Under the pieces are notes generated by a model, which saw only the letters and a program-made list of their open reading frames with translations, made no database searches and was not told the origin of the DNA. DNA of 63,944 bases, the filler included, from Candidatus Desantisbacteria bacterium CG1_02_49_89 (GTDB lineage Bacteria > Desantisbacteria > UBA1551), in NCBI GenBank assembly GCA_001871075.1. It is 4 parts of 4 records of this genome, joined end to end, with 100 filler letters (N's around TTAATTAATTAA, not from the genome) between each part and the next. Parts side by side here need not be neighbours in the genome. Positions count along the whole stretch, not along the records: positions 17,110 to 32,868 come from MNUP01000054.1; 3 more parts are not named here. One strand, written 5' to 3'. This document shows, piece by piece, positions 1 to 36,113 of this stretch (its first letter is position 1; the number at the start of each line of letters is the position of its first letter). The translations under genes were made by a program, and so were the position numbers.

Positions 1-776
1 TTAGCGGTACCTTTGCTTATGGAAGCGCGCAGCATAACCGAGAACTCCTTGGGCAGGAAATCCACGGAGCGGATATCAAGCTGTGAGGTTGCGGGCAGGG
101 CGCTGATAGTTACGTTATCCTGCTTGCCTGCAAAACCGAACTGAAAATCCTCTCCCGCGGTGCGCGTCGCTTCAATAACAAGTATTTCCATCATGACCTG
201 GGGAGGAGAAACATCTATAACAGAAATATAATCCTCTGTTTTTCTCACGACATCTTCTCCGCCTGAAACATAGATCGCGTTCTGCTCCTCGAGCACTTTA
301 AGGTTCGCCGCGGGTATGCCCGTAGGCAGAAGAGCAACAGCGTCAGACGCCTTTATATATTGGAGCATTATTAATTTTTCCGTGCATGGCTTCTTCTGCT
401 CTTTTGCCGGCGCTTTCTCTTCTTCTTTCGCGGCGATTGCCGGCTTGCTTCCGTCTTTTGCCAGCTTCACGATATAGAGCACGTCGTCTATGATCGTGTA
501 AGTGGACCCGGTGGAATCGCACAGGGCTTTCAGGACGGTCCACAGCGGCACGGTGGAATATTTGCCGGTTACCTTGCCTTCAACGTCGGTTCCGGGCAGG
601 ATGGTTATTTTGGTCATATTGGATATGTTCTTCAGCGCCCCTGCTATGTCCAGGTTCTTGAATTCAATGGTGACCGGGTCGTTCATCCTTTTTTCCACGT
701 TCTGGGCGCATACCGGCGCTGTTACGGCAAAACCTGTTGCAATTGCCACAATAAAAATCATAATCCTATTTTTCAT
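1..776 (-). CDS. Secretin (PilQ/GspD family), 3'-truncated at window edge
   Basis: Absent from the ORF track because it has no stop in the window. Manual translation from ATG 776: signal peptide MKNRIMIFIVAIATGFAVTAPVCA, N0-like VTIEFKNLDIAGALKNISNMTKITILPGTDVEGKVT, N3-like LQYIKASDAVALL...NAIYVSG, secretin entry motif IDVSPPQVMMEILVIE. Confidence 0.85.
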   Translation of the reverse strand, partial: MKNRIMIFIVAIATGFAVTAPVCAQNVEKRMNDPVTIEFKNLDIAGALKNISNMTKITILPGTDVEGKVTGKYSTVPLWTVLKALCDSTGSTYTIIDDVLYIVKLAKDGSKPAIAAKEEEKAPAKEQKKPCTEKLIMLQYIKASDAVALLPTGIPAANLKVLEEQNAIYVSGGEDVVRKTEDYISVIDVSPPQVMMEILVIEATRTAGEDFQFGFAGKQDNVTISALPATSQLDIRSVDFLPKEFSVMLRASISKGTA

Positions 777-847
777 ATCCCATCCCTTCATGACGTAAAA
801 ACTATTCAGCCACGGATTTACAAAATTTCCACGAAAACACGAAAGTA

Positions 848-927
848 CCCCCTGCAGTCCGATGCAACATCGGACTCAACGCAGGGGCCTGCGCGCCAGA
901 GCTGAGCGGATGGCGCTGCGGACGGAG
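848..927. repeat. Structured double-hairpin dispersed element (homologous to 44251-44338; partial copy at 27440-27478)
   Basis: CCCCTGC-hairpin-AAC-GCAGGGG-CCTGC-GCGCCA..TGGCGC; the 44251 copy has the same layout with compensatory changes. Confidence 0.7.
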
Positions 928-1004
928 GCACGGAGACACAGAGAATTGTTTGCGATGCACGATGCACGAAGAACGATGCACGAGTAAAAACTCTGACACT
1001 GTAT

Positions 1005-3008
1005 TTAAAAGGGCATCTGGTACACTGATTTCGAAATGAAAGCAACGGCTATACCCGCCATTCCTATCAAGCCCATACCGCAGGAATATCCCGCAAGCAG
1101 GACCGGCGCGTAGGATTTCCAGGTTTCTTTTCCGTACCTTTTCGCAAAAACATATCTCCCAAGGAGGCCTCCGAACATTAAGGGAATTGAGCCGTGAGGC
1201 CATCCTCCAAGCCCGCCGAGAAGGCCGTAAAAGAAAAGCATTGGCAATTTAAGGAAATGGGTAAATGCCAGCAAGCCGCTCCCTATCGCCCCTCCCGCGA
1301 GTATGTATTGCCACTTTATGGATTCCAGAAGCCAGCTCCTTCCCTCGATGGTGGCAGTTGACCACAGGCACTGCATAGTCGCGTTCAAAGGCCAGAATTT
1401 TGCCGCGTACGGATAGACTGCCGACGGTATCGGGCCGAGTTTCCATAACAGCGACCAAAAAATGAAGCTCGTGAACATTACTATCGGGAACATAAGGAAT
1501 TCGGCTTTTATTATGCTCGTGAATTTCGTTCCTGTCAGTTCCACTTCTCTGAAGAACTGGGACATATATCCGTGGTCCTGAAGGGGGATCGGGGTGAACC
1601 AGATAGCCACTCCCTTGTAACCCATGTTCCTGCTGAACACGAATATCCCTTCCCTGATATAGGGAACGCCCCAGTCTCCGCCTGTCAATCCCCTCATCCT
1701 CGCGGAAACATACGTGTCCAGCGGAGACCAGACAAAAGCAAAGAATACAAAAAATATAAACGGGAATGTGGGAACGAGTTTGTGCGCGAGGAAAAGAAAA
1801 CCGCACATAGAGCTGATCCATAAAACTCCCGCGAGCCAGATCGGTATGTCCCCCCGTCCCGGGACAGGCTTAAGGCTTCCCCTTACCGCCTGGTTCTTCT
1901 TGCCGGATGTAAAGCTTTTTACGGTCGAGACAATTCCGATAACGGCTATTACGAGAGCCGTCCCTATGCCGACGCTCATCCAAAAATTTATGCTTGTGGC
2001 GATCCCTGTCTGGATCGAGCCCATCCCGTGCCGCCAGGTATGGAAAACCCCCATCCTGTAGAGTATGGGATGCAGCACGATCTGGCTCAGAATAGTAGTT
2101 ATAAAAGTACCGATTACGATCGGAAAAGGAATAACAAAACCGACAAGGATACCGCTCATATCCGTGTTCAGGCCCCATATGGCGGACGGCAGAATGCCTT
2201 CCACGTTCGTGGTCAGATCGATAAAAGGTATTGGCAGGATCTAAAAAGTTTTTCCGAAGATCGCCGTTGAAAACGCGGGTATAAATACATAAATAAATCC
2301 GAAAGCAACCCCGATCACCGCGCCGATGCTGAATACATTCCACCTCCACGTGTCTCTTTTCCCGCCTGACGCGTCGGCAAGCGCCGTGGCCCCTTCCGCG
2401 CCCACTGGAGCCATCGGGAAAGGAAGCTTTTCAAGGTCAGATGTTACTTTGAAAACAAAAAACCCGCCCCCGAACCAGTTGAGCCTTCCCAGTATCGAGC
2501 ATATGAACATCAGCCAGACAGGCTGCAGCCAGTCCTTGTGCAGAAAAGTCCTTGCGGCATACGATTCAGAGCCGGGGAAAGGAGCGATCCATCTTACACC
2601 CTCTGCTTTCAGATATTCAACAATGCCGAACCCGTATGCGGCAGGCGACTGGAGAAGGTACTGGTTCCATATAAAACCCGCGAACGGGCCCCCTCCCACA
2701 AGCCCGCCTGCGATGTAATAAAGAATATATATTTCCTGTTTCTTCATTTTGCCGAATGACCTTCGCACAATTTCCATGAACAGGATGATGGTCACCCATT
2801 GCGCGGCAGAACCTATCCCGCCGCCTATCAGGAGCCCGAGATATATGGACGCGGGCATCATTATGAAACCCACGAAAAATGCCCCTATTACCGCGTACCA
2901 CGTGAAACCTTCCTCAAATATTTTCGGCGCGGCCTCGCGCTTGGTTCCCACGCTGGTATCTTCTTTTCCCCAGGTTGATATTTGCTCAGGCTCGTTTTTC
3001 TCTTTCAT
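1005..3008 (-). pseudogene. OPT-like peptide transporter membrane protein (~667 aa) interrupted by one in-frame TAG at 2241-2243
   Basis: ORFs 2241..3008 and 1005..2204 share a frame and read ...FGKTF*ILPIPFIDLTTNVEGILP...; polytopic hydrophobic protein with OPT-like LPFPMAPVGAEG motif. Confidence 0.7.
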
Positions 3009-3109
3009 GTGTATTCCTGATTTCGGCGATAAAATAAATCCGATTACAGCGATTTAATTCTTTTAACTAATAGCAGGGCAAGCCCTGCAGCTACGTTGTA
3101 TTCCGGGTT

Positions 3110-4132
3110 TTAACTTTCAGCTTTCAGCTTTGAGCTTTCAGCTTGCTCAAGCTGCGGCTTTTCCATGCTTCCCAGCTTGTCCTCAATGCGGCCCAGCCTG
3201 CGTTCACCGTCGGAGTATTTGCCCTGGGCGTCTTTCAGGTGCCTTCCCAGCACCTCGAAATCCTCCCTGAACCTTTTCAGGTCCCCTTCCAGCCGTGAAA
3301 GGTTCTGCAGGACCTGCTGCGCGCTCTTCTCAAGCGTCATTCCCTTCAGGCCAAGCGCTATCACCTGCAGGTAGGCGTAAAAGCTGTTGGGAGAGACCGG
3401 GATCACCTTCCTGCTTATCGCGTAAGGGAAGATCCCCTTGTCCTCCCCCGGCATTTCATCCCTTGTTATGCTCTCGTAATACACGTTCTCCGCGGGTATA
3501 TACATCATCGCGAAATCATACGTTCCCTCGTCGGGAAGTATGTATTTTTCCGCTATATCGTCTACGTGTTTTTTTACGTCGCTGAGGAATTTTTTCCTGC
3601 AGGAAAGCCTTTCGTCCTCTGTCCGGCTTTCAACGACCCTTTTGAAATTTTCAAGCGGGAATTTCGCGTCCACAGGCACGAACCTGTTCCCCGCTTTTAT
3701 GACCGCATCCACAACGTCGCCCGTCTTAAACCTGTGCTGCATTTCGTAAGCGCCGGGCAGGACCTGGGAAAGCAGTTCCTCGAGGAACAGCTCGCCGAGG
3801 TTTCCCCTCAGTTTGGGCGGGCTCAAGATCTGCTGCAGGTCGGACAGACCCTTGCCAAGCTCTTCCACCCTTTTTGTGGCTTCTTTCATGGCGCCCAGGT
3901 CTTTCTGAACGTCGGCCATCACCTGGTTGGAAGCCCGGCTTGTGCCGGCAACGTCTGAAAGCCTGTCGCTCATTTCCTTGCGCAGGGTCAGGATCTCTTC
4001 CCTGGCTCCTGTCATTTCCCCTACTTTTCCGGCAAGGTCATTGATCCTGCCTGAACTGCGCAGGATAACCGCAAAAAAAATAATGAGAACTGCCAATACA
4101 AATAAAAAAATGATTAACGTGACCAATTCCAT
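3110..4132 (-). CDS. rmuC: DNA recombination protein RmuC
   Basis: N-terminal TM plus coiled coil; RGNLGELFLE, VDAKFP, DFAMMYIPAENVY and VSPNSF motifs. Confidence 0.92.
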   Translation of the reverse strand: MELVTLIIFLFVLAVLIIFFAVILRSSGRINDLAGKVGEMTGAREEILTLRKEMSDRLSDVAGTSRASNQVMADVQKDLGAMKEATKRVEELGKGLSDLQQILSPPKLRGNLGELFLEELLSQVLPGAYEMQHRFKTGDVVDAVIKAGNRFVPVDAKFPLENFKRVVESRTEDERLSCRKKFLSDVKKHVDDIAEKYILPDEGTYDFAMMYIPAENVYYESITRDEMPGEDKGIFPYAISRKVIPVSPNSFYAYLQVIALGLKGMTLEKSAQQVLQNLSRLEGDLKRFREDFEVLGRHLKDAQGKYSDGERRLGRIEDKLGSMEKPQLEQAESSKLKAES

Positions 4133-4166
4133 ATATTATTCCATATACCAATATATCAATTTTATT

Positions 4167-4194
4167 ATTATACCATAAATATATTAATTGTCAA
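4167..4194 (-). promoter_or_regulatory. Sigma70-type promoter for rmuC
   Basis: Minus strand TTGACA-16 bp-TATAAT with extended TGn. Confidence 0.7.
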
Positions 4195-4195
4195 T

Positions 4196-4232
4196 AAAAA
4201 AAAGGGCTACCGCCGCAGGCGGCAGCCCTTTT
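4196..4232 (-). terminator. Intrinsic terminator after PorV-like gene (probably bidirectional)
   Basis: AAAGGGCTACCGCC-GCA-GGCGGCAGCCCTTT hairpin with A/T tracts on both sides. Confidence 0.8.
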
Positions 4233-4244
4233 GTTTTCATATCC

Positions 4245-5237
4245 TTAAAACTTCGCGGTTATGGAGATCCTGTGCGTTGTGCCGAGGTCCCCGAACGGGA
4301 CAAACGCGTAATCCACAAGGTAATTCAGGAACTGCGCTCCGCCCCCGAACGTGATGCCGGCTGGCTCAGAACCCTTGTAGCCGACCCTTGCGGATATCAT
4401 GTTGTTAAAAGTGTATTCAACGCCGGCATTCACAGAGGTCACGTTATCAGTCATCGCGTTCACGTCAAACAGGCACATGAGCGCGTGTTCCTTGGTATTG
4501 AGTATCTTGCACGCAACCCCTGCTTTTATGTTTGAAGGGAACATCACGTTCGCCCCATCCGCCAGGTACCTGAAGGTCGTGCCGAAATTCTGGAGCATGA
4601 ACCCGGCCTTGAGGTAATCATTGATGGTATATATGATCCCGAAATCAAGAGCCGCGCCGAAAGCCGAATAGTCGCCTATGGTCGAAGAAACCATCTTGAC
4701 AGTCAGGCCTATGCTTCCCGAGGTCAGCAGTTTTGAGGCGGCTGAAATGCCGATCGCGTAATCCGTGGCAGTGAATGTCCCGTCCTGCCCGCCGTAAAGG
4801 CCTCCCGCTGTTTCCAGGGTCTTTGGTATGCTTCCGTAGCCGGTATAGGTGAAATTCGCGCCGAAAGCAAGGATCTTCTCTTTTCTGTCCTCACTCCTGA
4901 TATTTCCCTTGCCGTCAGCGATCTTTACGGTCTTGATCCTTTCAACAGGCTGGGCATACGCGAGATACTCCGCACTTATTCCCTCTACCCAGACGTTGTG
5001 CATGAAAGTAACCTGCTTGTTATCGATCTCGATAAGCCCTGCGGGATTCCAGTAGGACGCGTTGATATCGTCTGCCGCCGCGACAAAAGCGCTTCCCATA
5101 GCAACAGGCCTTGCTCCGGCTTCCATTTTAAGGAACTGTAATCCTGCCGTGCCCTTGTCTTGCTCACCGGCGAACGCAGGCGCTACGCACACTGCCGCTA
5201 CCAGCAGCAGTGCAGTTATTTTTGCAAATATTTTCAT
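4245..5237 (-). CDS. PorV/PorQ family (UPF0164) outer-membrane beta-barrel
   Basis: Signal peptide; FLKMEAGARPVAMGSAFVAAADDINASYWNPAGL; C-terminal DYAFVPFGDLGTTHRISITAKF. Confidence 0.88.
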   Translation of the reverse strand: MKIFAKITALLLVAAVCVAPAFAGEQDKGTAGLQFLKMEAGARPVAMGSAFVAAADDINASYWNPAGLIEIDNKQVTFMHNVWVEGISAEYLAYAQPVERIKTVKIADGKGNIRSEDRKEKILAFGANFTYTGYGSIPKTLETAGGLYGGQDGTFTATDYAIGISAASKLLTSGSIGLTVKMVSSTIGDYSAFGAALDFGIIYTINDYLKAGFMLQNFGTTFRYLADGANVMFPSNIKAGVACKILNTKEHALMCLFDVNAMTDNVTSVNAGVEYTFNNMISARVGYKGSEPAGITFGGGAQFLNYLVDYAFVPFGDLGTTHRISITAKF

Positions 5238-5516
5238 TTTGTCCTCCCGTGTTAATATAAATCCATAATACTGATCCTAGATACTGGATCCTGGATGTCC
5301 CAAAGGTCCCAATGGGATCCCTTTGGGGGATCCCCTCGGGACAATCTCGTTTTTAAGACGGGATTGCTTCCCCGCCACAAATATTGGCGGGTCGCAATGA
5401 CATAAAAAGCGTCAACCTTGATCTAACATCCGGGATCCCCGCCCTGAAACCTTAGGGCGAGGCTCGCCCAGGCATAGGCCATGTGGGCGGCAGCATCCAG
5501 GATCTGGTATTTTGTA

Positions 5517-8500
5517 TTATCGTATAAGCCCTATCTTACCGGTCGTCCTGTTGCCTGACGGGTTTGTAATAACGTAGATGTAAATACCCGGAGCCACATC
5601 AACGCCAGAGGCGTTCTTGCCATTCCAGCTTGCCTCTCCGTTAGGATCATCAACTGCAACCTCTTTTATGAACTCGCCGACAGAATTGTAAATCCTGATG
5701 GTTGCCAGTTTTGTCAGATGATTAAACTTAACGGTTCCTCCCACGGCTTGTGCGGGTATATACGGGTTCGGGAACACCAATACACCGCTCAGATCACTAC
5801 CAGCCTGGTAAGGCCTGAATATCATCAGCCTGTACACGGAGAAGTGGCTCACTGTCACAGTGACCGTCCTGTTCACTAAGTCAACCTGCACCGCGCCTGC
5901 CACAAGCTCCCATGTCCTGCCGTTAAGCACGAATACGCGCAGGTTCGACGGGTTTTCCAAGCCAAGCCACACGCCCGCGTAGGAAATCGTTATCCTCACG
6001 GCGCTGGTATTGTTCAGGGTTACGTCAGTGGAAGTATCGCTGACCCTTACAGCCCTTATGCTCACTATCCTGCCGTTCAGCTCGCTGATGCCCGCGTACT
6101 GGCCGTTTATAAGAGCCCACGTGTTCGCTTCGCAGATCGAATCGTTTATAGTCATGAACGCGATCACTATACTGGCGGGTTCTGTCAGGCTGCCTGCGGG
6201 TATATTAAGTTCTACTATCGTATCTCCGAACTCGTTCATCAGCGTGTAAGACCTGTCCTCGTTGGCCGGGCTGAACACATCAATGGTCCTTGCCAGGTGC
6301 ACTCCGAGAGCCGGGCCCTTGTCGTCCTTCGCGCCGACAAAAATGTCAACGGTCATCCTGCCTGTCCTATTGGTCGTCTTTGTGACGGTGAACGTCGAAG
6401 CGCCTAAGTTGCCGGGCGCAAGGCCAAGCGGGTTGGGCTTGGTGACCGTGAACTCGGAGCTTATGTCCTCGCCATCCATCGTGAACACCACGCAGCTTGT
6501 CGCCGTGTCGATCGTGACGTTCTTCATACCTATATTCTGAACGGTGAGCGACATCGTCCAGGTATTGCCGCTTGAGGGCACAGTATTCGGGACCGTAACG
6601 ACTCCCACCTGCGCTATACCGGTTATCATTATGGTATCGCTCTTCGCGTCCGAAATGTTGCCGCACGCATCTATGAACTTCACCCACACGGTCTTGATTC
6701 CGTCAAGCACGTTCTGCGAGAGTACCCAGTTCGCGCTTGTCACGTAGGCGATCGTATTCACAGTGCTGAAGTTGTCATTCGATACCGCGATCTGGCCGTT
6801 GCCTGCCTGGGTGTCGACAGAGCTGAAGTTCAGCGTTACCGTGTAGGTGTTCACGTACTGGTCCCCGTTGTTTATCTTCACGCTTCCGGACGGAGGAGTA
6901 AGGTCAACCACTATGGTGTCGCTCCTCACAGGCGAGACATGGCCCAGCGCGTCAAAGTATTTCGCGTAAACGTACCTTTCACCGTCACCGGTATTAGGCA
7001 GCGTCCACACGATGCCGGCAGGATCGTAAGCCCTGGCTACAAAGTTAAGGTTGTCGTTGGAAAGCATCACCTGCGCGATGCCGGACTGCGTGTCCACCGC
7101 GTAAATATTCACGATCACGTTTATGCTGTTGACATAGTCGAACCCTGCATTAAGAGCGAACGCTCCGTCAGGATAAGCCACGTCTATGACTATCGTATCC
7201 GTGGCAGTGACCGAATTACCTACCTTATCTATATATCTTACCGTAACCGTCTTCAGGTCATCGCCCGCGGAAAGCACAAGCGCCCTGCTGCCCGGCGTGT
7301 AAGCGGAAGTATTATCTACCCCGCCTTCGCTTATCACAACCGTATCAACGCTGGTAAGCGCGTCTGAAGCCGAAAGCGCTATGCTCACGGTCCAGTTTTC
7401 CGTGTAATTGGCGCCTGTATCTATAACCACTGAACCCGAAGGTGAAGTTACGTCAATGAGTATCGTGTCGGAATAAACCGGCGAGATATTGCCGGGACGG
7501 TCTATGAACCTTGCGGTAACCGTCTTCACGCCGTCAGAAACGAATGTCCATACCTTTGCGCCTGCAAGCGCGGAGGTCTCCGTGTTCACACCGTCGGAAA
7601 TGACCATGGTGTCAACAAGAGATTCCGTATCCGCAGCGTTGAGCGTCAGGTTGACGGTAAGGCTGTTGAACAGCACGCCTTCGTTTATGGACACCGAACC
7701 TGAAGGATTGGTGACGTCTATAAGGATATTATCCGTCGCCTGCGCGGAAATGTTTCCGGCATGATCAATGAACCACACCTGGATCATCCTGTTGCCGTCG
7801 TATGTGAACGTCCACGCCTTGCTCGTTGCGTAAGCGCTGGTGCTGGTGGACACCCCGTCGGTTATGACCATGGCGTCAACCGCTACCTGCGTATCCGCAG
7901 CGTTGAGCGTCAGGTTAATGCTCATCTTGTTAAGGAACAAGTCCTCGTCAATTACCACTGTGCCGGACGGAGGCGTGATGTCTATAAGGATGCTGTCCGA
8001 CGCGTTTGCGGAAACGTTGCCCGCCTTGTCCAGGAACCTGGCGTTGATCACGTTGACGCCGTCGGCATCAAATGTCCATCCTATTGCTGTTGCATACGGC
8101 ATAGTGTTAACATTGGTGCCGTCGTCTATGACCATTGTATCAACGGAAACCAGCGCATCTGAAGCGCTGAGCGCCATCGTAATGGTCCTGCTGTTATGCA
8201 GGATGCCCTGGTCTATAGCTACCGTCCCGGACGGAGGAGTGATGTCTATAAAGGTCGTATCCGAGAACGATCTGGAGACGTTGCCTGCCGCGTCAATGAA
8301 CCTTACGGACACGGTCTTGTTCCCTTCGGAATAGATAGCCCATGCCACAGCCGGGCCGAAAGCGTAGGTGTTCGTGGTAACCCCGTCACTGATTATCATC
8401 GTGGTAATGGCGCTCTGCGTGTCTGCAGCGGCGATCGTAAGGTTGACGTTAAGATTGTTGCAAATCTTGCCCTCGTCGATCGTGACCGTCCCGGAAGGAG

Positions 8501-29862: not shown

Positions 29863-30861
29863 ATGGCAAGACCTATCAGAATAGTATACGAGGGCGCCCT
29901 GTACCACGTTACTTCAAGGGGTAATGAGCGAAAAAGGATCTTCCAGAACTCGGATGACAGGAGGAAATTTTTATCTATTATCAACGAAGCATACCAGCGA
30001 TATGGCATTTTTCTTCACTGCTTTGTTCTTATGGATAACCACTATCATATGATGATCGAGACTCCGAAAGGCAATCTTATACAGGCAATGCATTATATTA
30101 ACGGAAAATATACACTATTCTATAATTGGAGGCATAAAAGAACAGGCCATCTTTTCCAGGGAAGGTATAAAGGCATTCTTGTTGAAAAGGATGAATACCT
30201 GCTTGAACTGAGCAGGTATATACACTTAAACCCGGTCCGGACAGGGGAAGTGGCTAATCCGGCAAACTATGTCTGGAGCAGTTTTGTCTACTACATGGAT
30301 AGCTCCAAGACAAGCCCGGATTGGTTGAGAAAAACCTTTATTTTAGGCCAGTTTTCTCATAAAGACAACCAGGCAAGGTCAAGATATGCCGGGTTTGTTA
30401 AGGAAGGTATCCGAAAATCACCCCAGAACCCCCTTTCAAAGACCTATGCCCAGGCTATTCTTGGCAGTGAAAGGTTCAGAATACAGGTAAAGGAAAGGCT
30501 GGGCAAGCCCAGGATCCAGCCAGAAGTGCCTTCCACCAGGAAGCTCGCCGAAGATTCCTGGCTTACCCCTGAAGAGGTGATAAAGCTGGTTGCAGGATAT
30601 TTCGGTGCGCCAAAGGATGTCATGGTTTTGAAGGGCAAGAAGGCCAACCTGGCAAGAACTGCTGCAATTTACCTGTGCAGAAAATACACGCCCGCAAGCC
30701 TTTTAAGCCTTAGTTCCCATTTCGGAAATATAGTGTATTCATCCATTACGCAGGTCTCAAGAAGAATGGAGAACAAGCGGAAAGTTGACAGATATCTTGA
30801 CAGGAAGATCAGGGCTGTTGAAAAGGTGCTGGAAAACAAGCGGTTGCAAAGAGTTTCTTAG
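29863..30861 (+). mobile_element. REP-associated tyrosine transposase (RAYT, Y1 HUH) with C-terminal DnaA_C-like HTH
   Basis: YHVTSRGNER, LMDNHYH (HUH), GHLFQGRY, YIHLNPVR, YVWSS; C-terminal ARTAAIYLCRKYT..SL....HFG. Confidence 0.88.
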
Positions 30862-30873
30862 TATATTTATTTT

Positions 30874-30957
30874 GAGTGAAATGTCAAGACCTGACCCCAG
30901 TTTTATCAGTGTGAAAAGAAAAAATGGAAAGAGTGAAATGTCAAGACCTGACCCCAG
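30874..30957. repeat. Two identical 27-bp direct repeats separated by a 30-bp spacer
   Basis: GAGTGAAATGTCAAGACCTGACCCCAG at 30874-30900 and 30931-30957. Confidence 0.95.
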
Positions 30958-30992: not shown

Positions 30993-31020
30993 TTGACAAA
31001 AAGCCAGGAATAAATATAAT
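30993..31020 (+). promoter_or_regulatory. Sigma70-type promoter upstream of the DUF11 cluster
   Basis: TTGACA-16 bp-TATAAT. Confidence 0.65.
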
Positions 31021-31437
31021 ATAACCAGTAAGATAATTAACGTAAGACGCTCTTATACCTAACTACAAAATCCTTTCTCATCTTTTACGACAAACCCAAT
31101 CTCTCACACTTACACGCTTTCAAAAGCGCCTTGCCGTTGCGGTACGCCAAAAGTAAACTTAAAAGTAAACTTTAATCTTCGTTCGAGTGTCAAACTTATC
31201 GGGACTAAAAGACCAGGCTGTGATTATTTTTTGCCGCAGGCCCTGGTTTTACATACGGTAGCCGCAAGCTTGAGCTTGCGTATTTTCAAAAGAAAAGATC
31301 CTTTGAAACCCGGTTATCAGTTTTCAGCCAAAAACCTGCTTTTTATCATTTTTAAAAGAAAGCGGGTTTGGCCCAGAAAGACCCTGCGCATATGTATATG
31401 ATAGATTTGACAGATTTGATAAAATTGGAGAGAATAG

Positions 31438-32028
31438 GTGAGTAAAATAAAAACATCTTTATCTTATAAAACCAGCCCGGAGAGAATAACCGAAGACGCC
31501 AACAGATACATCAGGTTCTGGGGCGCCTGTATTTCGATCAGCCTATGCATGCTTTTGCTTGTATGGGCTGTTTTTATTTCCGGAGGCCCGGCAACGTCCT
31601 ATGCCGACATCCAAAACTTCGCCTCATACAGCCAATATAATAATTTATCTCTGGAAGACACCCAGACCGGTCCGTATACTAATACAGTAAATGGCACATA
31701 TACATACCATCAGCTCGTTCTCGTTAAATACTCGATCAACCGCCGCCTGTATCCAAGCGGCACCAACTGGTCAGACACCCTGGCTGTCGATGCGGTCCAG
31801 GACGATACGGTTGAGTTCAGGATCACCTGGCAGGATTCAGGTGTCGGAGGCACGGCTGACACGGTTGTTCTTACAGACGCGGTGCCATCGAACGTGACCT
31901 ATATTGACAGCCAGATAGTATCAGGCGGCGGGACGCTTTCTTATTCAGCGCCTACATTACTCTGGTTGAAGAATAACGTAAGCCCGGGAGAGACCGGGGA
32001 TATCAGATACAGGGCAAGGGTGAACTAA
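31438..32028 (+). CDS. Secreted single DUF11-like domain protein (permuted topology)
   Basis: GTG after GGAG; hydrophobic leader; VDAVQDDTVEFRITW...VVLTDAVPSNVTYI...VSPGETGDIRYRARVN. Confidence 0.8.
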   Translation: MSKIKTSLSYKTSPERITEDANRYIRFWGACISISLCMLLLVWAVFISGGPATSYADIQNFASYSQYNNLSLEDTQTGPYTNTVNGTYTYHQLVLVKYSINRRLYPSGTNWSDTLAVDAVQDDTVEFRITWQDSGVGGTADTVVLTDAVPSNVTYIDSQIVSGGGTLSYSAPTLLWLKNNVSPGETGDIRYRARVN

Positions 32029-32032
32029 TAAA

Positions 32033-32572
32033 ATGTCTAACCTTATAGCGAACATGCATTTTGGTAAGAAAATAACGGCAGCACTTATCGCCCTGGTTGC
32101 CATAGTATGTATTTATGTTATACCAGCATTAGCAGTTACAACAGTAGTTAATAAATGCACAAGCACCTTCCAGATGACAGGAGCCGCAGTCACAACCTCA
32201 GGATGGGATACCGCGAATGTCAGGGTTCAGACCAGCCCAAGCCTCACAGTAAAGAAATACGCAAAAAATATTAGGACCGGGATCGAGCAGGATTACAGCG
32301 TTGACGCAGTCACAGGCGACTCGATCGAATTCAGGATCACCTGGTCAAATGACGGAGAAGCAAAAGCAGATACGATCGTGCTCAGGGATTATATACCTTC
32401 AGGCATGACATATATCGCGGCTTCAGCGACTGACACGGAAATTAACTGCGACAGCCCGACAACAGCAACATACAACGCAGGCCTGGTCAGTTACACAGGC
32501 ATAGGAGCCGCAGGAACAGACCCAAGCCCTGCTGCTAACGGCGTGATAAGGTTCAGGGTTACGGTGAACTAA
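32033..32572 (+). CDS. Secreted single DUF11-like domain protein (permuted topology)
   Basis: Signal peptide ending ALA; PSLTVKK, GDSIEFRITWSNDG, IVLRDYIPSGMTYI, VIRFRVTVN. Confidence 0.85.
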   Translation: MSNLIANMHFGKKITAALIALVAIVCIYVIPALAVTTVVNKCTSTFQMTGAAVTTSGWDTANVRVQTSPSLTVKKYAKNIRTGIEQDYSVDAVTGDSIEFRITWSNDGEAKADTIVLRDYIPSGMTYIAASATDTEINCDSPTTATYNAGLVSYTGIGAAGTDPSPAANGVIRFRVTVN

Positions 32573-32696
32573 TAATAATAGCTCATAGCTCATGGCTCAT
32601 AGCAGAAACAAAAACGAAAATAAAAATAAAAGCAAAAAGAAATAAGTAAAAAGTAAAAGAAACAAGTAAGAGTAACAAAAATTAAAAGGAGGCAGT

Positions 32697-32868
32697 ATGA
32701 AAAGGTTCATGGTAGCAGCGGCAGTGGTGGTCGGGTTGGTCGGATTGGTCGGAATGGTCAGAGTTGCTGACGCGGTAACAGTCATCAATAACTGGTGCAC
32801 AGGAACATATCAGCTGACAGGGAAAACGGTTGCAAGCAGCGGGATAGACAGCGCGGTAGTCAGGGCTC
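32697..32868 (+). CDS. Third paralogous secreted subunit, 3'-truncated at contig end
   Basis: AGGAGG RBS; signal peptide ending ADA; VTVINNWCTGTYQLTG...SGIDSAVVR matches VTTVVNKCTSTFQMTG...SGWDTANVR of 32033. Confidence 0.8.
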
Positions 32869-32968
32869 NNNNNNNNNNNNNNNNNNNNNNNNNNNNNNNN
32901 NNNNNNNNNNNNTTAATTAATTAANNNNNNNNNNNNNNNNNNNNNNNNNNNNNNNNNNNNNNNNNNNN
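32869..32968. other. Artificial contig linker
   Basis: N44-TTAATTAATTAA-N44. Confidence 0.98.
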
Positions 32969-34069: not shown

Positions 34070-35119
34070 ATGAAAAAAATCTTGTGTTCCACCACAATTG
34101 TATCTTTGGTCCTGCTTGGTTTCTGCTTGGCAGTGCCTTCTGTATGTCATGCATCGCTGCATTCAATAACCGATCTTGCGGTAAGCGAGGCCGGTTATGA
34201 TTCAGCAGGCTTTTACGTCAAGCTTTCCTGGACCGCGACAACAAATGACGACCCGATTGATTTCGGGGCGCAGTTCCTCTATTATTTATACAGCCGCAAC
34301 GGCCGGGACGGCTTATCCTCTGCTTCTTTGGACAGCCAGTGCATAGCAACTACATCATCTAATAGTTATAGCTGGCATCCGTCCGTGACCCAGGATTATA
34401 TGTTTATGGTGATCGCTACCGAAACCTTCGGGTTGCACGTGGGGGACAGCACCTGTTCAAACACGGCGGTAAATCATTGCCCTTACGGTTTATACGGCAC
34501 CGAAGGGACCAACGGGGCAAGCTGGAGTTTTCCCTTTAGCCTTCGGGGTAACGCTTATGTGAATGTCAGGATCTACGCGCCCGGCGCAATCCTTAATCAG
34601 GACACTTACGGCCATACGGTTCACGACGCCGCATACAACAGCTGCATAAGAAACCTTGTTGTAAAGCAGTTAATGTCTTACGGGTCGCAGAGCGCCTCGT
34701 GGAACTGCAAAGACGACACGGGAACTTATGTTACCAGCGGTAATTACCTGGTTCTGGTCGAGGCAATATTAAACGACACCGAAGTGATAGGCAGCGAGAC
34801 CGTCACCGCGTCTGTAAACGTCGAGATAGGCCAGACCGTGCACACTTACCCGAACCCGTCAAAAGGCCAGCCGATCAATTTTGAATATATTGTCGGCACC
34901 GCGCCTGCCGAAATTACCATTGAAGTTTATACGATAACCGGGGAGCTTGTCTGGACCAATACTTATAATTACGCGAGCACCGGAACGAAAACAGAGATGT
35001 GGAATTGCCTGAACAGTTCCGGATGTTTGATCGGTAGCGACATATACGTTTACAGGATAATCCAGAAGGTCGGCACTGATACGACTATCGCGGTAAAAAA
35101 ACTCATTTACGTGAGATAA
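34070..35119 (+). CDS. Secreted protein with Fn3-like and FlgD-Ig domains plus T9SS-like C-terminal sorting domain
   Basis: Signal peptide; SWNCKDDTG..V.SGNY; TYPNP...IEVYTITGELV...WNC.N..G..IGSDIYVY...KKLIYVR. Confidence 0.75.
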   Translation: MKKILCSTTIVSLVLLGFCLAVPSVCHASLHSITDLAVSEAGYDSAGFYVKLSWTATTNDDPIDFGAQFLYYLYSRNGRDGLSSASLDSQCIATTSSNSYSWHPSVTQDYMFMVIATETFGLHVGDSTCSNTAVNHCPYGLYGTEGTNGASWSFPFSLRGNAYVNVRIYAPGAILNQDTYGHTVHDAAYNSCIRNLVVKQLMSYGSQSASWNCKDDTGTYVTSGNYLVLVEAILNDTEVIGSETVTASVNVEIGQTVHTYPNPSKGQPINFEYIVGTAPAEITIEVYTITGELVWTNTYNYASTGTKTEMWNCLNSSGCLIGSDIYVYRIIQKVGTDTTIAVKKLIYVR

Positions 35120-35120
35120 A

Positions 35121-36113
35121 ATGAAAAAAGAAAAAAGACCTATTTTATGCTTAAGCATAACAATAATTATGGCATGCGCCTTTATTTTCAGCGTGTTTTG
35201 TACGCATGCCGGCGCGCAGATAACAAACGTGGGAACGAGCACCGCGAATTTCCTTAAAATTGGGCTCGGGGGACGTTCCGCCGGAATGGGCGGTGCTGTT
35301 GTTGCCTCGGGCGAGGGCGTTGAATCTCTTTTCTGCAATCCCGCCGGACTTTCTTTGGCGAAAATGGTGGAATTGGGCGCCAGCTTCAATAACTGGTTTG
35401 AAGGCATATCCAACACGTACCTGGCATTCGGGTATCCTTTTAAGAACGGCAAAACCGTCCTGGGCCTGACTGCCGCTTACTGGAACATGGGCGAGATCGA
35501 GGTCACATCGACATCCTCGACAGTCGAAAGGTATGCGACCGTTACCGAGGGTTTCGGCGGAGTTTCTATCAGCCACGCGTTAATGCCCGGCCTGCTTGCA
35601 GGCATATCTGTGAAATATATATTCCAGGACCTGGTTGCCTGTTCAGTAAACGGTGTTTCGGCGGATGTCGGTCTGGTTATACTACTCGGTGATATGGTCC
35701 GTATCGGAGTTGCCGGGCAGAATTTAGGGACGGTCCAGGCGGTAGGCGGAACCCAGGATGCGCTTCCAACAGTGGTAAAGGCGGGCGGTTCTCTAACACT
35801 CTGGAAAACCGCCACGATCGAGGTGGACGCAGTGATACCCAGGGATAATGATGTAAAGCTGCAGGCCGGCCTGGAATACCTGATAAAGTCTTCGGAATAC
35901 AATAGCGCGATAGCCCTTCGCGCAGGATACAACCAGGCAGAAGCTACGAGTGCCACAGCAGCCCCGAGCGACCTTTCGGGGATCTCGGTCGGAATAGGAA
36001 TAAGGGGATGTGTGGGAGAAGGCTCTTCCGAGAATATGCTTATTGATTACGCCTACGTTCCTTTCGGGGGTTTCGGCGTGACCCACAGGTTCTCCATGGT
36101 GATGAGATTCTAA
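35121..36113 (+). CDS. PorV/PorQ family outer-membrane beta-barrel
   Basis: FLKIGLGGRSAGMGGA...NPAGL; C-terminal DYAYVPFGGFGVTHRFSMVMRF. Confidence 0.88.
   Translation: MKKEKRPILCLSITIIMACAFIFSVFCTHAGAQITNVGTSTANFLKIGLGGRSAGMGGAVVASGEGVESLFCNPAGLSLAKMVELGASFNNWFEGISNTYLAFGYPFKNGKTVLGLTAAYWNMGEIEVTSTSSTVERYATVTEGFGGVSISHALMPGLLAGISVKYIFQDLVACSVNGVSADVGLVILLGDMVRIGVAGQNLGTVQAVGGTQDALPTVVKAGGSLTLWKTATIEVDAVIPRDNDVKLQAGLEYLIKSSEYNSAIALRAGYNQAEATSATAAPSDLSGISVGIGIRGCVGEGSSENMLIDYAYVPFGGFGVTHRFSMVMRF

Follow-up and report, generated by a model that had tools for sequence, protein, structure and literature searches.

Candidate split-CLIPPER surface fiber encoded by an operon of secreted DUF11 subunits in Candidatus Desantisbacteria bacterium CG1_02_49_89

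Three same-strand open reading frames (ORFs), g1, g2, and g3, at the end of contig C80 of Candidatus Desantisbacteria bacterium CG1_02_49_89 (GenBank assembly GCA_001871075.1) encode small secreted proteins whose DUF11 domain, also called CLIPPER, lacks its last two strands at the C terminus and carries corresponding strands directly after the signal peptide. The operon lies in a stretch of 63,944 nucleotides (nt), here called the window, in which contigs of this metagenome-assembled genome (2.48 Mb, 150 contigs, 93.5% complete) are chained by N/TTAATTAATTAA linkers. On balance, the operon probably encodes the subunits of a surface fiber or stalk made of split CLIPPER domains. Head-to-tail complementation of one subunit by the hairpin of the next is likely, a covalent lock between the chains is somewhat favored, and anchoring through C-terminal domains (CTDs) and outer membrane barrels is evenly poised. 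This reading is built on the observed anatomy, homology, conservation, and gene orders together with modeled docking in trans; from these we infer the covalent bond, the polymer length, the anchoring, and the export of subunits that have no CTD.

In the proposed assembly, a two-strand hairpin that bears the isopeptide Asn (N40 in g2) would open the mature subunit, 4 to 5 residues downstream of signal-peptidase cleavage. A linker of 4 to 5 residues would lead to a CnaA-like immunoglobulin (Ig) body in which the Lys strand (K75) and the catalytic Asp (D119) are present and the last two strands are missing. Unable to complete its own body, the hairpin would enter the open body of the preceding subunit. 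There, strand A would gain hairpin strand 2 as a parallel neighbor and the Asp strand would gain hairpin strand 1 as an antiparallel one, so that two chains together make up one full CLIPPER domain. Its Lys-Asp-Asn triad would probably form an autocatalytic intermolecular isopeptide bond in the manner of SpyTag/SpyCatcher. The order of assembly would be that of the genes and of N-to-C polarity. The tip would be an acceptor-only protein, either a giant LamG/Big_1 protein whose last body is incomplete or a small subunit without a hairpin. The shaft would consist of the donor-plus-acceptor subunits g1, g2, g3, and their paralogs, and the terminator would be a donor-only protein with a type IX secretion system (T9SS) type-B CTD, held at the outer membrane by an adjacent PorV/PorP-like barrel. 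More speculatively, the chain would be assembled in the periplasm and exported through an SprA-like pore, the CTD of the terminator leading.

Anatomy of the split domain and conservation of the triad

Proteins g1 and g2 match Pfam DUF11 (PF01345) with 26.0 and 32.3 bits against a gathering cut-off of 24.6, and their paralogs score 24.8 to 30.8 bits. Family TIGR01451 is matched by g2 with 38.6 bits (cut-off, 24) and by g1 with 22 bits, just under the cut-off. The g1 match places residues 119 to 195 on positions 13 to 84 of the 114 positions of the hidden Markov model (HMM), and the protein ends about 30 HMM positions early; the g2 match covers positions 13 to 62. These matches above the cut-off and the ORF calls bear out the original prediction, made from the sequence of the window, that the operon holds three tandem secreted DUF11 paralogs, g3 being only partial at the contig end. 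The small subunits end right after a strand of the form ..FRxxVN and have no LPXTG sorting signal, by which they depart from the subunits of sortase pili; their likeness to those pilins is one of structure only.

The position of the absent strands emerges from a profile (A1) built from 19 small subunits, of which 14 came from the protein collection and 5 from the same genome. On the canonical tandem protein P0133, residues 287 to 397 are covered by Pfam DUF11 positions 10 to 111 and residues 258 to 372 by A1 positions 50 to 168; A1 restarts at position 22 from residue 373. It follows from this double mapping that the hairpin (A1 positions 22 to about 50) coincides with DUF11 HMM positions of about 88 to 111. 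As judged from these alignments, the N-terminal hairpin is homologous to the last two strands of a canonical DUF11 domain. In the 5,697-amino-acid (aa) protein P0019, the mature profile matches 24 directly adjoining units, one every 146 aa. The motifs VDVVK, LTLND, and NVVNKVT of the crystal structure 9IFR correspond to LTVKK, VLRDY, and TVVNKCT of g2; 9IFR was reached through a phmmer search with the giant adhesin P0089 (E, 0.041), which served for mapping only and not as evidence of homology.

A one-chain DUF11 domain has the order Lys strand, Asp strand, Asn strand, and last strand, and the subunits do not follow it, their Asn strands being N-terminal of the Lys strand. The original prediction had placed the last two strands after the signal peptide, with no C-terminal copy. 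The end of the HMM match at position 84 of 114 and the P0133 mapping agree with this, and the DUF11 HMM alignment that it had proposed as a check confirms that the Asn strand and last strands precede the Lys strand. Its term “circularly permuted” holds for the sequence order; as a description, “split domain” seems to fit better, since each part seems to serve a different domain of the assembly. Its choice of DIQNFAS as the Asn strand of g1 fared less well. This segment is perhaps not homologous, the stretch YNNLS..EDT..TNTVNGTYT of g1 resembles the internal hairpin of the tip proteins, and the placement of the Asn in g1-type proteins therefore appears ambiguous.

Conservation was assessed in 52 small ORFs or proteins from the genome's own contigs, metagenome loci, and search matches, which left 47 distinct sequences after de-duplication. 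All are shorter than 260 aa and score above 100 against the profile, which they match from no later than position 12 to at least position 140; the set contains the 19 profile sequences. Asn, Lys, and Asp (N40, K75, and D119 in g2) are invariant in the 19-sequence alignment, in which mean column identity is 44%, and each is kept in 47/47 distinct subunits, as had been expected of homologs in the original prediction. The Asn is also kept in all three donor-only proteins described below, and the acceptor-only proteins retain the Lys and Asp. Across the family, an AxA cleavage site precedes the invariant Asn by 4 to 5 residues. D59 of g2 is present in 43/47 subunits, and the Cys beside the Asn (C42) is present in 39/47. 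A role of this Cys in a disulfide or thioester was considered and dropped, as the residue is Ser or Ala in 8/47 subunits.

Donor-only and acceptor-only proteins at paralogous loci

Paralogous loci provide the strongest support for head-to-tail assembly; in a search with the subunit profile, the best 150 of 7,964 matches were examined. On contig C140, the series opens with a protein of at least 796 aa. Two donor-plus-acceptor subunits come next, then a 437-aa donor-only CHU_C protein, and finally a barrel of the PorV/PorP-like type with a fused OmpA domain. The opening protein ends in an incomplete body (FRFRVTID), and the domain before that body is complete and has its own hairpin. The 437-aa protein has its only hairpin (LITNTCTGVYW...) at the mature N terminus and a CHU_C/T9SS type-B CTD at its end. 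Contig C28 of the same genome has the order 167-aa subunit, 425-aa donor-only CHU_C protein, and PorV/PorP-like barrel, and locus L040, one of the metagenome relatives together with L034, L036, L039, and L041, has a subunit followed by a 438-aa donor-only CHU_C protein. The donor-only proteins thus stand directly after a small subunit gene in 3/3 cases, and a barrel comes next in both loci with downstream DNA (C28 and C140).

Acceptor-only proteins occur at the opposite end. In L041, a 1,503-aa LamG/Big_1 protein that ends in a hairpin-less body precedes a subunit. In L036, the first gene encodes a 175-aa acceptor-only subunit with its signal peptide directly before the Lys strand, and the next gene encodes a natural fusion of the form hairpin-body-hairpin-body-hairpin, in which Pfam DUF7933, a further family with isopeptide bonds, spans body 2 into the following hairpin at a score below the cut-off (20 versus 26.5 bits). 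Four to five or more subunit genes stand in a row in L034 and L039. The gene order, from tip through shaft and terminator to barrel, follows the N-to-C polarity of P0089, an unsplit giant adhesin with 26 DUF11 stretches and a CHU_C CTD.

Two further stretches deserve description. On contig C10 (locus L015, positions 1083 to 7289), a 1,340-aa SBBP/LamG/Big_1 protein, a 297-aa Big_1 and DUF11-like protein, and a 191-aa protein stand in this order, the last with an N-terminal hairpin (VQNIAVGTF ... SEQVTADIV) before an ITVTK strand; by its sequence, this locus is a second, more divergent split set. On contig C28 (locus L013), downstream of the barrel, positions 3 to 4157 of the minus strand encode a protein of at least 1,385 aa that runs off the contig and has three Big_1 stretches, a Laminin_G_3 domain, and a calcineurin-like phosphoesterase domain.

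The CHU_C domain is found in the donor-only proteins of C28, C140, and L040 with 27.9, 29.6, and 34.7 bits (cut-off, 27). TIGR04131 matches them with 20.8 to 21.5 bits, below its cut-off of 35, and the barrels next to the donor-only genes score 64 bits against PorV_fam (cut-off, 90) and 38 bits against PorP_fam (cut-off, 90.55). According to the available part of PMC9143113, proteins with a type-B CTD are anchored at the surface in association with PorP-like proteins. PorV-family matches number 28 and CHU_C matches 20 in the genome; of these, at least 10 form adjacent pairs, with the CTD gene before the barrel gene. In this organism, surface proteins in general seem to be held by this module of CTD and barrel, and the numbers suggest that private cargo-barrel cassettes have multiplied greatly in a genome of 2.5 Mb. 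Two such pairs lie in the window itself. At 34070 to 36113 (contig C82), a 349-aa CTD protein with FlgD_ig and a T9SS-type tail is followed by a 330-aa PorV-family barrel (128 bits; cut-off, 90), and at 4248 to 5711 (contig C78), a CTD-bearing protein is likewise followed by a PorV-family barrel.

The operon in the window may itself belong to such a series. The last 171 nt of C80 and the start of the reverse-complemented C28 are identical at 164/171 positions (96%). This pattern of overlap is the one expected where an assembler breaks at tandem paralogs, and the operon therefore likely continues into the genes of C28. The next genes would then probably be another g3-type gene and those for the 425-aa terminator and the barrel.

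Structure models and alternative explanations

The AlphaFold2 (AF2) model of full-length monomeric g2, computed with the A1 alignment, has a well-defined body (residues 70 to 179; predicted local distance difference test [pLDDT], >90) and a hairpin (residues 35 to 65) of low confidence (pLDDT, 42 to 55). The check for folding back in cis that the original prediction had named thus leaves the hairpin unplaced. VIA superposes the body on 9IFR with a Z score of 9.1 and a root mean square deviation of 1.9 Å over 91 aligned residues (20% identity), model residues 66 to 179 lying on 92 of the 123 residues of the chain. The fold match alone is weak evidence for CLIPPER membership, since the unrelated AP-4 mu4 chain ties at Z 9.1. 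Foldseek gives 9IFR an E value of 3e-2 (probability, 1.00; TMt, 0.57) among top matches of 4.7e-3 to 3e-2, and the other top structural matches of the body are the isopeptide pilins RrgB, BcpA, SpaA, and PilA. Searches of PDB sequences returned two chance-level glucanase matches for the A1 profile (E, 0.17 to 0.18), 9IFR not among them, and 0 matches for phmmer with P0133.

Three copies of g2 residues 35 to 179 were modeled with ESMFold2 and scored 0.66 (runs, 0.66, 0.71, and 0.66), against 0.00 for the best of three controls. The mark used was reached in calibration by 20/30 proteins solved as one-chain pairs and by 1/23 solved as single chains. At least 79% of contacts agree between runs, and the partner pLDDT is at least 86. 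In this model, hairpin residues 37 to 49, 54, and 56 to 68 lie on residues 68 to 77, 86 to 94, 98 to 106, and 110 to 125 of the neighbor. Residue 59 pairs with 73 to 75 and 61 with 77, so that hairpin strand 2 is parallel to strand A; the pairs 42/119, 44/117, and 46/115 place strand 1 antiparallel to the Asp strand. In the modeled trimer, two chains together reproduce the canonical CLIPPER arrangement. The same pairing would be impossible within one chain, because only 4 to 5 residues separate hairpin strand 2 from strand A. The claim that each subunit donates its Asn hairpin to its neighbor is thus partly supported, in silico, by the triad, the monomer, the end pieces, and the head-to-tail homo-oligomer model; its covalent part is less well supported.

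A number of observations weigh against head-to-tail, covalently locked, and barrel-anchored assembly. The low-error pairs of the trimer are K75 with D59 and D119 with C42, K75-N40 not being among them, and these pairs would leave room for a Lys-Asp bond or for no bond. The trimer job combined an author-made alignment with three copies, unlike the calibration of the tool, and its passing score may stem from the model's memory of intact CnaA/CLIPPER domains. Certain VIA alignments begin at model residue 54 to 57, which places hairpin strand 2 near its own body in the monomer, at low confidence. In the AF2 model of the 317-aa L036 fusion (mean pLDDT, 66.9; hairpins, 29 to 35 for the first, 48 to 81 for the middle, and 29 to 33 for the last), the hairpin after body 2 is undocked (pLDDT, about 30), in a run whose alignment (A3) covered one repeat only, all 29 other rows lying on the second repeat; VIA did not show on which body the middle hairpin packs. 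At the sequence level, Pfam finds DUF11 in 0/5 isolated hairpin peptides, which are too short for HMMER, and BLASTP of g2 against the tip protein P0016 aligns the body (E, 1e-16) and not the hairpin. Contig C80 carries neither a tip nor an anchor gene, and its apparent link to C28 rests on a single 171-nt overlap at 96% identity.

Export adds further points of the same kind. The small subunits have no CTD, and GldM and GldL have no match in the genome, the control genomes having given none either. The T9SS core family PF14349 is likewise without a match in this 93.5% complete genome, and contig C60 (loci L043 and L044) has a 1,660-aa frame with five collinear sub-threshold matches to SprA (TIGR04189; best E, 6.3e-20). 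From its sequence, this frame may be a distant T9SS-like translocon outside Bacteroidota. The neighborhood survey for an export or assembly gene that had been proposed at the outset turned up the CTD proteins and PorV/PorP-like barrels of the paralogous loci; it found no chaperone or usher among the scanned locus neighbors, and the whole genome was not searched with those families.

These points bear on two alternatives that are each improbable. In the first, the hairpins assemble the same chain noncovalently, by strand complementation alone, as in chaperone-usher, TasA, and type V pili, and Asn, Lys, and Asp are structural residues. Docking in the trimer model without a K75-N40 contact agrees with this, as do the DUF11 domains described as having no bond (Costa et al., PMC12617251, in the part available) and the stability of BsaA oligomers in sodium dodecyl sulfate (SDS) even without the bond (PMC11580942, in the part available). 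Against it stand the triad kept in 47/47 subunits while most positions vary, and motifs that match those of the bonded crystal structure 9IFR. In the second, with about the same small probability, the products form a defined hetero-oligomeric stalk, a giant T9SS adhesin in pieces, in which each paralog has one fixed place between tip adhesin and CTD anchor. A g1-g2-g3 order kept in the relative L033, rows of 2 to 5 or more different paralogs (L034 and L039), the unsplit counterpart P0089, and the natural fusion of units in L036 all suit such a stalk. The g2 homotrimer nevertheless scores as a self-complementing chain, although models of this type do not resolve specificity, and the multiplied g3-like genes with near-identical hairpins (L039 and the C80/C28 overlap) fit a repeated shaft unit.

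Stand-alone circularly permuted Ig-like monomers, such as secreted lectins or surface-layer parts with the hairpin folded in cis, are very unlikely: the sequence order, the VIA rows that take in hairpin strand 2, and the undocked hairpin of the L036 fusion are compatible with them, but the hairpin is of low confidence in the monomer model, the linker before the parallel strand has just 4 to 5 residues, canonical DUF11 domains have the same strands after the body, and the collinear donor-only and acceptor-only proteins would go unexplained.

Gene layout, related systems, and distribution

The features of the operon are listed in Table 1. Genes g1 and g2 are 4 nt apart. The g2 body has K75 on strand A and ends in IRFRVTVN directly before the stop codon. 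Contig C80 ends within g3, whose reading frame meets the N/TTAATTAATTAA linker at 32869; the gene is thus cut by the contig end and is not a truncated gene. Its fragment matches A1 positions 1 to 53 with an E value of 1.6e-13. Six promoter-like sites are present in the region, compared with 3.0 ± 1.7 in shuffled sequences, and a terminator-like site was looked for and not found in the spacer between g2 and g3. The relative L033 (51% identity) keeps the order g1-g2-g3, which agrees with the proposed assembly, and its contig also breaks after the third gene, and g1 orthologs hold the same position in L033 and L042. Locus L039 has three g3-like genes in tandem with common 5′ ends, each preceded by a similar A-rich spacer. 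The own Shine-Dalgarno sequence and A-rich leader of g3, together with this triplication, hint that g3 is the major subunit, as the original prediction had it beside two minor ones.

Table 1. Positions of the operon and its parts in the window
Feature	Position	Strand	Remarks
Promoter-like TTGACA-16-TATAAT upstream of operon	30993..31020	+	12/12 consensus matches; consensus match only
Second promoter-like site directly 5′ of g1	31407..31435	+	10/12 consensus matches
Ribosome-binding site GGAGAG before g1	31427-31432	+	Read from sequence
g1, 196-aa subunit	31438..32028	+	DUF11 match; A1 profile positions 6-168, 150.6 bits
g1 N-terminal part, long signal/anchor			Predicted cleavage after SYA, residue 56
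g1 divergent hairpin	31606-31713 (about residues 57-92)	+	
g1 incomplete CLIPPER body	residues 93-196	+	Carries K97 and D147
g2, 179-aa subunit	32033-32572	+	
g2 signal peptide	32033..32134 (residues 1-34)	+	Predicted cleavage after A-L-A; site inferred
g2 donor hairpin	32135..32230 (residues 35-66)	+	TVVNKCTSTFQ ... SGWDTANVRV; invariant N40
g2 acceptor body	32231..32572 (residues 67-179)	+	Incomplete CnaA-like/CLIPPER; DUF11 and TIGR01451 matches, 9IFR-like fold; D119
A-rich 124-nt spacer with AAGGAGG before g3	32573..32696	+	Read from sequence
g3, first 57 codons	32697..32868	+	Signal peptide residues 1-26; donor hairpin with N32

Upstream of the operon, C80 carries an O-antigen-ligase-like/TPR gene and an IS200-like gene. 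The latter encodes a Y1 transposase fused to a DnaA C-terminal helix-turn-helix domain. Two exact 27-nt direct repeats, 57 nt apart, lie 3′ of it; gene and repeats together occupy window positions 29863 to 30861 and 30874 to 30957, and an 18-nt core of the repeat occurs in six copies on three contigs. An orthologous gene and similar repeats coding for “CEMSRPDP” stand upstream of the operon in L033. The gene and its repeats may constitute a REP/RAYT-like system.

The proposed lock has a man-made counterpart in SpyTag/SpyCatcher, in which an incomplete Ig-like domain, holding a Lys and a catalytic acid, takes up as a strand a peptide with one bond partner and locks it in place spontaneously. 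That pair is a split CnaB2 with a CnaB fold and a Lys-Asp bond, and it does not form a polymer.

The split subunits share homologous sequence (PF01345, TIGR01451, and 9IFR), a CnaA-like fold, and Lys/Asp/Asn motifs with CLIPPER domains, for which crystallography shows a Lys715-Asp748-Asn806 isopeptide bond (Costa et al. 2025, PMC12617251, in the part available). They differ in that CLIPPER has the triad in one chain, in the order Lys-Asp-Asn, and stabilizes tandem stalks of giant adhesins, whereas here the Asn strands are N-terminal and the bond would join two chains. The text of PMC12617251 has 0 occurrences each of “split,” “permut,” and “SpyTag” and describes CLIPPER only as an intramolecular domain. 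A parallel in principle is Clostridium perfringens BsaA, of the TasA family, with its “donor strand exchange and lock” through N35, E56, and K74; according to the accessible part of PMC11580942, an Ala substitution of each of the three residues abolishes oligomerization, the N-terminal segment enters the sheet of the next subunit, and an Asn-Lys isopeptide bond forms with a catalytic acidic residue of the acceptor. BsaA has an unrelated fold and a single donor strand and is Gram-positive and SipW dependent, in contrast to the two-strand CnaA-like hairpin of a diderm proposed here. The TasA/camelysin fold and SipW-type signal peptidase gave no Pfam match in g1 to g3, no NCBIfam match in g1 and g2, and none in the scanned neighbors of the paralogous loci. 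Donor strand complementation and isopeptide bonds are also joined in one filament in the preprint title for the Sulfolobus acidocaldarius thread (PMC9715654), an archaeal system that is likened here by title and abstract only.

Chaperone-usher pili (type 1 and P) have, in the accounts available, a comparable division of labor, with a tip adhesin of lectin and pilin domain and a terminator that anchors the rod. Their subunits are joined noncovalently by one donor strand, and their assembly depends on an usher and a periplasmic chaperone. The tips of the split loci carry Laminin_G_3 domains, and in the haloarchaeal tat-fimbriae TafC/TafE/TafA/TafF, a modeled laminin-G-like tip, an adapter, a major subunit, and an anchor are joined by donor strands (PMC11821415, in the part available). 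That system is unrelated, archaeal, and Tat dependent, and “isopeptide” has 0 occurrences in the part of its text available; an apparent mention of DUF11 in that text is actually DUF1102 and was discarded. The donor-only proteins resemble T9SS type-B cargo in having CHU_C above the Pfam cut-off and a PorV/PorP-like barrel behind them. They differ from it in that the barrels stay below the NCBIfam PorV_fam and PorP cut-offs and the organism apparently lies outside the named T9SS phyla. A literature search, which did not cover subscription journals, found no split or intermolecular CLIPPER fiber described.

The phylum is represented by two genomes in the GTDB set searched, and the other genome (87% complete) has no match to the subunit profile. 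An Actinomadura record with a match of only 30 residues in a single-protein contig scan was taken as ordinary DUF11. The stretch in the window is present in groundwater and aquifer metagenome runs, and no RNA run was among those that contain it.

By the comparisons drawn above, a known principle, that of BsaA and the archaeal threads, would be realized here with another domain, one that is very widespread, in a diderm whose phylum has barely been sampled. Tentatively, and at slightly below an even chance, these loci represent a new class of diderm surface fiber, split-CLIPPER pili, with autocatalytic ligation that requires no sortase, chaperone, or usher, an acceptor-only tip, and a donor-only terminator tied to a barrel. 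If the bond forms in trans, outer membrane bacteria would have a distinct route to covalent fibers, without the sortase used by Gram-positive pili and without a chaperone-usher system, and the assembly would be a natural, polymerizing counterpart of SpyTag/SpyCatcher. Each paralogous pair of hairpin and body is a candidate orthogonal tag and catcher for protein ligation. With their private PorV/PorP-like barrels, the donor-only CTD proteins would extend T9SS-type anchoring beyond its known uses, in a candidate phylum with just two genomes in the set searched. If this reading is true, CLIPPER, a stalk domain of wide occurrence, would be divisible into self-ligating modules, and adhesin stalks could be put together piece by piece, their lengths set by subunit supply.

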